From assembly GCA_964016885.1 (NCBI GenBank), contig OZ024740.1:313224001-313288000 (forward strand): a stretch of DNA of 64,000 bases, given 5' to 3'. The notes beneath the pieces are model-generated. The model was not told where the DNA came from. It made no database searches and was given only the letters and a program-made list of their open reading frames with translations. This DNA comes from Eledone cirrhosa (lineage: Eukaryota). Positions 11,162-11,360 of the stretch are shown one piece after another; positions within the stretch are counted from its first letter, which is position 1, and each line of letters opens with the position of its first letter. The translations under genes and the position numbers were made by a program.

Positions 11162-11163
<2 letters not shown>

Positions 11164-11357
11164 ACGAAGGAAATGTGGTAAGGAACCAGATGGACCATAA
11201 CGCACCAAAGTACTCAATACTTAGGGTAGTAGAGTGGGTAATAGGAACGAGTAGGACCCCCGACGGCTGAGCTCAAGCCGTTTCGACGGCTAATTCTGGA
11301 CTCCAGAATTAGCCGTCGAAATGGCTTGAGCTCAGCCGTCGGGGTCCTACTCGTTCC

Positions 11358-11360
<3 letters not shown>
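11162..11360. mobile_element. Hairpin-plus-tail element (~80-nt tail, 60-bp near-perfect palindrome)
   Basis: Arms 11241-11300 and 11302-11360, flanked by (TA)n; homologues at 60573, 5227, 28526 and 62601. Confidence 0.85.

Follow-up and report, generated by a model that had tools for sequence, protein, structure and literature searches.

A hairpin-plus-tail element family in Eledone cirrhosa, likely a variant of the insertion pattern of Penelope-like elements

Penelope-like elements (PLEs) that carry an endonuclease leave characteristic insertions, with an inverted 5'-truncated copy, a one-sided tail, and a bias toward (TA)n targets (PMC8557442), and palindromes are found at their head-to-head joints (PMC3846280). 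Transcription of Penelope starts inside its pLTR (PMC8557442), and the 3' pLTR alone can drive transcription (PMC2377424), and together these would account for the origin of a short RNA whose 5' end is fixed. In experiments on Poseidon from Anolis in vitro, both strands of an AT-rich target are nicked and extended, with two internal start sites bounding the tail (PMC11167929). How PLEs make their inverted ends and one-sided tails is still treated as open in these accounts (PMC8557442, PMC11167929); for the tails, resolution by the endonuclease is the published guess (PMC8557442). Here, we describe a family of short hairpin-plus-tail elements in a 64-kb stretch of Eledone cirrhosa DNA (hereafter the window, meaning the whole stretch that was analysed). 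An initial annotation of the window put this family forward as an undescribed system, a claim that is not supported, as the insertion pattern has already been described for PLEs (PMC8557442, PMC3846280).

The window holds five members of the family, of which the fifth, the tail-only copy E, had been overlooked in the initial annotation. The copies and the parts of copy A are as follows:

11162-11359: copy A, whole, in the opposite orientation to copy B
11162..11241, minus strand: copy A tail, 80 nt and one-sided; its outer end is the first fixed 3' end and the putative first start of reverse transcription
11242..11299, minus strand: copy A inner (tail-linked) arm, with GAAAC, a palindromic stem, and GUC, without CUGANGA
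11300..11302, no strand: copy A apex, a 3-nt loop; a longer form departs from the hairpin sequence after 11302
11303..11359, plus strand: copy A outer arm, stopping at the arm/tail border against (TA)n; this is the second fixed 3' end and the putative second start
60574..60769, plus strand: copy B, with outer arm 60574-60629, loop 60630-60633, inner arm 60634-60689, tail 60690-60769, and TA on both sides
5227..5339, plus strand: copy C, of subtype 3, with 13-bp arms around 8 nt and a full tail; both arms end far before the usual apex
62601..62657, minus strand: copy D, of subtype 3, a lone arm without a tail
28527..28592, minus strand: copy E, the final 66 nt of the tail and nothing else, within (TA)n; a 5'-truncated single copy

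Copies A and B, each about 200 bp long, consist of a hairpin of about 118 bp, with arms of 56-57 bp, and a one-sided tail of 80 nt, flanked left and right by TA runs. The common tail of about 80 nt was rightly recognized in the initial annotation (copy B is here placed at 60574), and so was the presence of a palindrome; its length, given there as about 60 bp, is closer to that of a single arm, and the centers of the two copies are not the same, as had been thought, but differ by a strand flip of the loop ACT, which belongs to the tail-linked strand in A but to the outer-arm strand in B. The intact apex end likewise lies on the tail-linked arm in A and on the outer arm in B, and one hairpin arm always stops at the same base, the A of AGTCC. 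Folded as DNA, the hairpin has a z-score of -17.4, and none of 200 shuffled sequences was equally stable. The mirrored terminus that had been assigned to a third subtype is present at 5227, in the form of the 13-bp arms; the other copy named for it, at 62601, is a single arm with no hairpin.

The two arms of a copy resemble each other more than they resemble the arms of the other copy. Within copy A, they differ by one substitution and one gap in 57 positions and within copy B by two substitutions in 56, while the inner arms of A and B are separated by five substitutions and one gap. Arm alignment bears out the earlier observation that five differences between A and B are mirrored: all five substitutions are repeated in the outer arms (5/5), for which about 1e-9 is expected by chance if arms mutate independently. 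The comparison of arm-versus-arm with copy-versus-copy divergence that had been proposed thus gives, for A and B, 1-2 substitutions within a copy against 5 between copies. Two causes had been suggested for the mirroring, re-synthesis of one arm from the other at mobilization or selection for pairing; our results favor arms that were templated together at mobilization and do not favor selection for pairing. The RNA fold of a single arm plus tail is not unusual (z -0.4 to 0.5). Rfam returned only sub-threshold, miRNA-type hairpin matches for the whole element among the best 150 of 568 matches, and nothing notable for the half element. The element is not strictly without an open frame, as had been stated, since copy B contains one of 45 codons; this frame has no homologue in protein searches, in which none of seven candidates scored. 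Two phmmer matches to it proved to be unrelated repeat proteins, and a coding role was set aside, with 4 of the 12 tail variants listed falling at third codon positions, as by chance. Protein searches with the open frame gave nothing real, and no coding parent of the family was reached by them; a PLE parent would encode a PLE-type reverse transcriptase, together with a GIY-YIG endonuclease in the endonuclease-positive clades, and would have a pLTR formed as a partial tandem.

The ends of the copies have a clear polarity. Read from arm to tail, all four tails end at the same point and all four outer arms end at the arm/tail border, and these fixed ends adjoin TA or TA-like DNA; of the non-run positions outside the satellite, just 4% have a TA run within 5 nt. 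The 5' ends are variable: that of E falls within the tail, that of C early in the arm, that of D close to the apex, and those of A and B at the apex itself. Target-primed reverse transcription leaves fixed 3' ends and variable 5' ends. The family combines several features of PLEs: a head-to-head inverted 5'-truncated copy (A, B, and C), a one-sided tail, fixed 3' ends, and a (TA)n bias of the kind known from Neptune and Naiad, and the suggestion in the initial annotation that PLEs are candidate mobilizers is supported by the inverted copy, the one-sided tail, and the (TA)n targeting. Copies A, B, and E and one side of C lie in TA runs, and D lies in TA-rich DNA. For target duplications, D is the informative copy, the others lying in TA: it is flanked by 10-bp direct repeats (62593-62602 and 62659-62668), a candidate target duplication that is equaled by 537 of 20,000 random position pairs, and the junctions of C share a direct repeat of 5 bp only.

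Beyond the window, matches to positions 11162-11360 were collected from four of the 17 runs listed, with contigs (set X1) and reads (set X15) under the same species label and two sets from other organisms (X5 and X7). The family is very abundant, as judged from the 19,204 of 16,285,364 contigs in X1 and the 24,131 of 12,467,656 reads in X15 that match, with which the five members in 64 kb agree locally; the 9 contigs in X5 and 3 in X7 are too few to serve as evidence of range. Among the X15 matches listed (24,131 in total), 1261 reads have the B-type outer arm against TA and 2191 have the subtype-3 arm on the tail. Also among the matches listed, a longer form that departs after 11302 into AT-rich DNA appears in 948 X15 reads, 98 X1 contigs, 1 X5 contig, and, as a mirror image, 1 X7 contig, and in two X1 contigs the tail, the arm, and the continuation past the apex occur together. 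The hairpin is thus not the whole element. The longer form, which is without the second arm, can be read for 30 nt beyond the apex, where it is heterogeneous (consensus agreement of 0.44-0.53); it is a mix of several variants. By eye, about 23 of these 30 letters are alike between the X1 consensus and the X5 contig, so the sequence past the apex points to the element and not to host DNA. In the sense orientation, the longer form reads TTTAGTCC across the departure point, and the hairpin arms begin at its A. Among the matches there are also apex variants, with C or G at 11301 or with a loss of 1 or 3 nt at 11303, in which one arm remains complete up to the same base and the other is trimmed, and one subtype-3 contig has a perfect palindrome at the apex. 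Short-read libraries lose palindromes. Piles of read ends at 11295 and 11307 were not taken as biology, as they coincide with AATT words and are attributed to restriction sites of a RAD library, with the enzyme inferred; given both this and the loss of palindromes, these data do not give the relative numbers of hairpins and longer forms. A word from the tail had no match in the three sequence collections scanned; a word from the arm had 120 loci in a collection scan, none alike beyond 31 nt, and these were taken as chance.

The same shape recurs in the window in two other families. A set of 82 ends of TA runs was screened for an inverted copy within 300 nt; six passed, and four of these are clear hairpin-plus-tail elements (A, B, and two further families, F and G). 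The other two were dropped, one being a simple repeat and one a weak 15/20 match, and copy C was missed on account of its short arms. Those two families, a coding PLE remnant, and a short copy of that PLE are located as follows:

50939..51170, plus strand: family F, with TA, 54-bp arms (8 mismatches), a tail of about 115 nt, and TA; CTGATGA..GAAAC..GTC on the outer arm; an older element
53552..53836, plus strand: family G, with TA, AT-rich arms of about 65 bp meeting in the palindrome TCATGA, a tail of about 135 nt, and TA
21237..22848, plus strand: 3' part of a PLE, with Cys linker and GIY-YIG endonuclease (one stop), 3' UTR, TTAGT at 22773-22777, a degenerate hammerhead core, and TA
7355..7430, plus strand: short copy of the GIY-YIG PLE of the window, flanked on each side by TA; its start coincides exactly with the A of TTAGT (matching 22775)

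That F and G have the same hairpin-plus-tail shape indicates a process acting on several families. The short copy at 7355-7430 has the same start context as the apex of the A/B family, and TTAGT occurs once in the last 249 nt of the window PLE; this control is one copy. The sequence links are weak. In shuffle tests, likeness to F was equaled in 4 of 500 shuffles for A, 40 of 500 for B, and 21 of 500 for C, and likeness to the window PLE in 13, 301, and 410 of 500, respectively, all of them weak values among 24 comparisons, so that F and the window PLE are parallels and not proven relatives; G has no sequence link to the A/B family.

Several side observations concern the surroundings of these elements. 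Family G has a 17-bp duplication in one arm, with no hammerhead seen, and the tail of F has a short motif in common with the A/B family tail. The window PLE has a 30-nt 3' stub at 51183-51212, adjoining TA, and a direct repeat of about 120 bp in its 3' UTR (22423-22541 and 22562-22682). Close to TA runs lie two further motifs of the hammerhead core, at 6676-6652 and 9226-9155 on the minus strand, which are probably the 3' ends of other PLE families. Copies of a LINE-like element, with reverse transcriptase and a PHD-like finger (Pfam was applied to the first copy only), lie at 11245-13347, 30527-33600, 14832-17699, 23177-24019, and 61245-61950 with TA runs at their edges; one lies just past the TA run beside copy A, and no link between the two is shown. 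A 16-kb array at 33693-50067, with a pronounced strand skew, is built of TA-derived 21-27-bp units and is interrupted by LINE pieces. Small hairpins outside TA occur at 7189-7230 (20-bp arms, inside a SINE-like repeat) and 55643-55668 (11-bp arms).

A hairpin in which one arm seems rebuilt from the other could also come from a non-autonomous DNA element, such as a relative of Crypton or DIRS (tyrosine recombinase), a Helentron with an HUH-type rolling hairpin, or a fold-back MITE. Crypton and DIRS elements would be marked by a tyrosine recombinase parent and by short terminal direct repeats that are constant, or by a complementary region inside the element. Rolling-hairpin replicons have flip-flop hairpin ends, and the flipped loop of A relative to B recalls them; in addition, target duplications are not clear within TA, and TA-targeting DNA transposons exist (MuTAnT). 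We nevertheless consider a DNA element very unlikely. Terminal inverted repeats of the kind expected for a TIR transposon or MITE are lacking, with terminal matches of just 5-6 of 12, in agreement with the initial annotation. Helitrons and Helentrons are recognized by 5' TC and CTRR 3' ends or by short asymmetric terminal inverted repeats with hairpins at each end (PMC8969392), whereas the ends of this element read TA..TTA in TA runs, with no 5' TC or CTRR. The copies are cut from one side only, family F bears hammerhead-like words, and the PLE control copy has the same start context. A scan of 5 of the 149 window ORFs against Pfam found nothing positive for a Crypton or other DNA element.

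Two kinds of motif in the element bear on its class. In the arm of the A/B family, GAAAC, a stem whose loop is palindromic, and GUC make up the 3' half of a core like that of a hammerhead. The best match to CUGANGA in A, B, and C has two mismatches, and Rfam found no hammerhead in 11162-11303 and nothing notable in family F. The apex was tried as the stem II loop of a full hammerhead and rejected, since the longer form is AT-rich and has neither CUGANGA nor a stem II partner in the 30 nt visible. Because a canonical type I hammerhead was sought and not found, we keep the family out of the hammerhead-bearing PLE clades (Penelope/Poseidon, Neptune, Nematis, and Hydra). The second kind is a pair of words resembling Pol III promoter boxes on the plus strand, which reads tail first, A-box-like at 11222-11237 (one mismatch) and B-box-like at 11280-11290 (two mismatches), 42 nt apart. 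The initial annotation had reported none; a weak pair thus does exist, and a tRNA search of the element found none. The pair was equaled in 4 of 2000 shuffles at thresholds picked afterwards and in 101 of 2000 at looser ones, and it is probably incidental.

Such a pair would be expected if the whole hairpin and tail were transcribed as a SINE-like unit, possibly by Pol III, tail first with (TA)n as the 3' end, and if a few master copies then had their arms homogenized by conversion or kept paired by selection. That the apex is fixed in A and B, and that the copies are so very numerous, also fits a transcribed unit. This explanation seems improbable to us: the A-like word is set about 66 nt into the element, its B-like partner is the complement of the GTCGAAAC motif, and no tRNA was found; the tail-only copy E would have to be 3'-truncated, whereas the five window copies suggest truncation from the apex side; and neither the longer form without a second arm nor families F and G, which have the same shape and no such box pair, are expected from it.

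We propose instead that the family is the shortest product of a PLE, formed when both target strands are nicked, one short RNA is copied twice, and the two cDNAs are joined head to head, and we put the probability of this reading at roughly 55%. A pLTR promoter would give rise to an RNA of about 140 nt starting at the apex A, within a TTAGT that we take to be initiator-like. A PLE protein acting in trans would prime two cDNAs, one of them at the tail end and the other at the arm/tail border; both would run to the 5' end of the RNA and be joined via a few complementary bases. Copies with short arms (C), with an arm alone (D), or with a tail alone (E) would result from early stops, and the longer form may come from RNA that begins further upstream. 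Under twin priming, the arms would co-vary through being copied from the same template at insertion and not through selection for pairing, and the whole apex end lying on different arms in A and B is simply explained by two cDNAs. An origin from a PLE is further supported by the arm-only copy D with its own direct repeats and by family F with the full set of hammerhead core words.

The product of a PLE could also arise from one nucleic acid alone, if a single cDNA or antisense RNA folded back at a fixed end and copied itself and the endonuclease then cut at the arm/tail border. Palindromic PLE joints have been read in print as the outcome of self-priming (PMC3846280), and this variant would use the endonuclease resolution already guessed at for tails (PMC8557442). 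The apex of copy A, which can be taken as a loop of 3 nt, closed by GG/CC, on the tail-linked strand, would fit it, as would the perfect 6-nt palindromes in which subtype 3 and family G meet. In copy B, however, the intact end is on the tail-less arm, so that self-priming would need a later inversion of the loop; independent priming at the arm end would account for the arm-only copy D, which has a direct repeat of its own; and the in vitro extension of both strands from two internal sites (PMC11167929) also speaks against it. We therefore regard self-priming as the less favored and on its own rather unlikely route, while an origin from a PLE by either twin priming or self-priming is, taken together, quite probable.

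If twin priming applies, a more specific and tentative possibility, which we think doubtful at present, is that a solo pLTR promoter produces the 140-nt RNA and that a PLE protein copies it twice into a hairpin with a fixed apex, making the family a dedicated SINE-like branch of PLEs. Each inserted hairpin is without the upstream bases of the start motif, and yet the family has reached a very high copy number, and the shape is common to at least three families in this genome. Should such a branch exist, thousands of natural replicates of how PLEs prime both strands and close the insertion would be at hand; this step has yet to be demonstrated for a PLE. A high-copy family with subtype-diagnostic bases on both arms may in any case be a useful test set, with same-subtype arms indicating one template and mixed arms two, and counts of apex orientation would separate twin priming from self-priming. 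Some short sequences called 'unknown', SINE, or MITE in such genomes may be PLE products, and copies that were transcribed would be predicted to form double-stranded RNA of 57 bp.

Among known systems, tRNA-derived SINEs have A and B boxes in a tRNA-like 5' head, of which the weak A/B pair was all that was found here. Animal non-LTR retrozymes are likewise short and non-coding, and they derive from PLE pLTRs and are mobilized in trans; unlike the family, they form head-to-tail tandems with a full type I hammerhead per unit, whereas all five family copies are single or head to head and have an incomplete core (bioRxiv 10.64898/2026.07.22.740005). The Naiads of Octopus (Naiad_Obim and Naiad_Ovul, in the supplement of PMC8557442) share the (TA)n target and half of a hammerhead core with the family, and, judged by eye, their final ~150 nt open with TTTTAGT, contain GTCGAAAC, and close with a motif resembling the end of the family tail. 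Naiads as a clade carry an N-terminal GIY-YIG domain, a CxC motif, and a reverse transcriptase with an IFD. Longer words of the family had no match in the Naiad supplement (PMC8557442), where line breaks can hide matches, and shorter ones matched only in unrelated context; a Naiad 12-mer had 3 matches in the window against 4.35 expected, and cephalopod Naiads are called long inactive (PMC8557442). This apparent likeness of 3' ends may serve as a lead only. The literature consulted contained no description of the family or of a fixed-apex PLE mini-family, and Dfam, Repbase, and the octopus library of PMC13282606 may contain it.

The closest likeness is to PLEs themselves. The two internal start sites that bound the tail of Poseidon from Anolis in vitro predict the two fixed ends of the family (PMC11167929); the joining of two cDNAs and the short pLTR transcript go beyond that paper and are proposed here. 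Endonuclease-positive PLE insertions share with the family the head-to-head inverted copy, the one-sided tail, a joint that is a palindrome or nearly so, 5' truncation, (TA)n targets, and an occasional target duplication of about 10 bp (PMC8557442, PMC3846280). They differ in having tails of 30-40 nt (PMC8557442), against 80 nt in the family, in which the turning point is mostly fixed to one base, a canonical hammerhead is absent, and the copies, as known here from non-coding ones, have no ORF with homologues. What is new lies in the details: an apex fixed at an initiator-like base, a tail of 80 nt, a ribozyme core that has been lost, and a copy number that is very high. These most likely mark a variant, and the hairpin-plus-tail family as a whole is likely to be a tidy version of an insertion pattern already known rather than a new class of mobile element.
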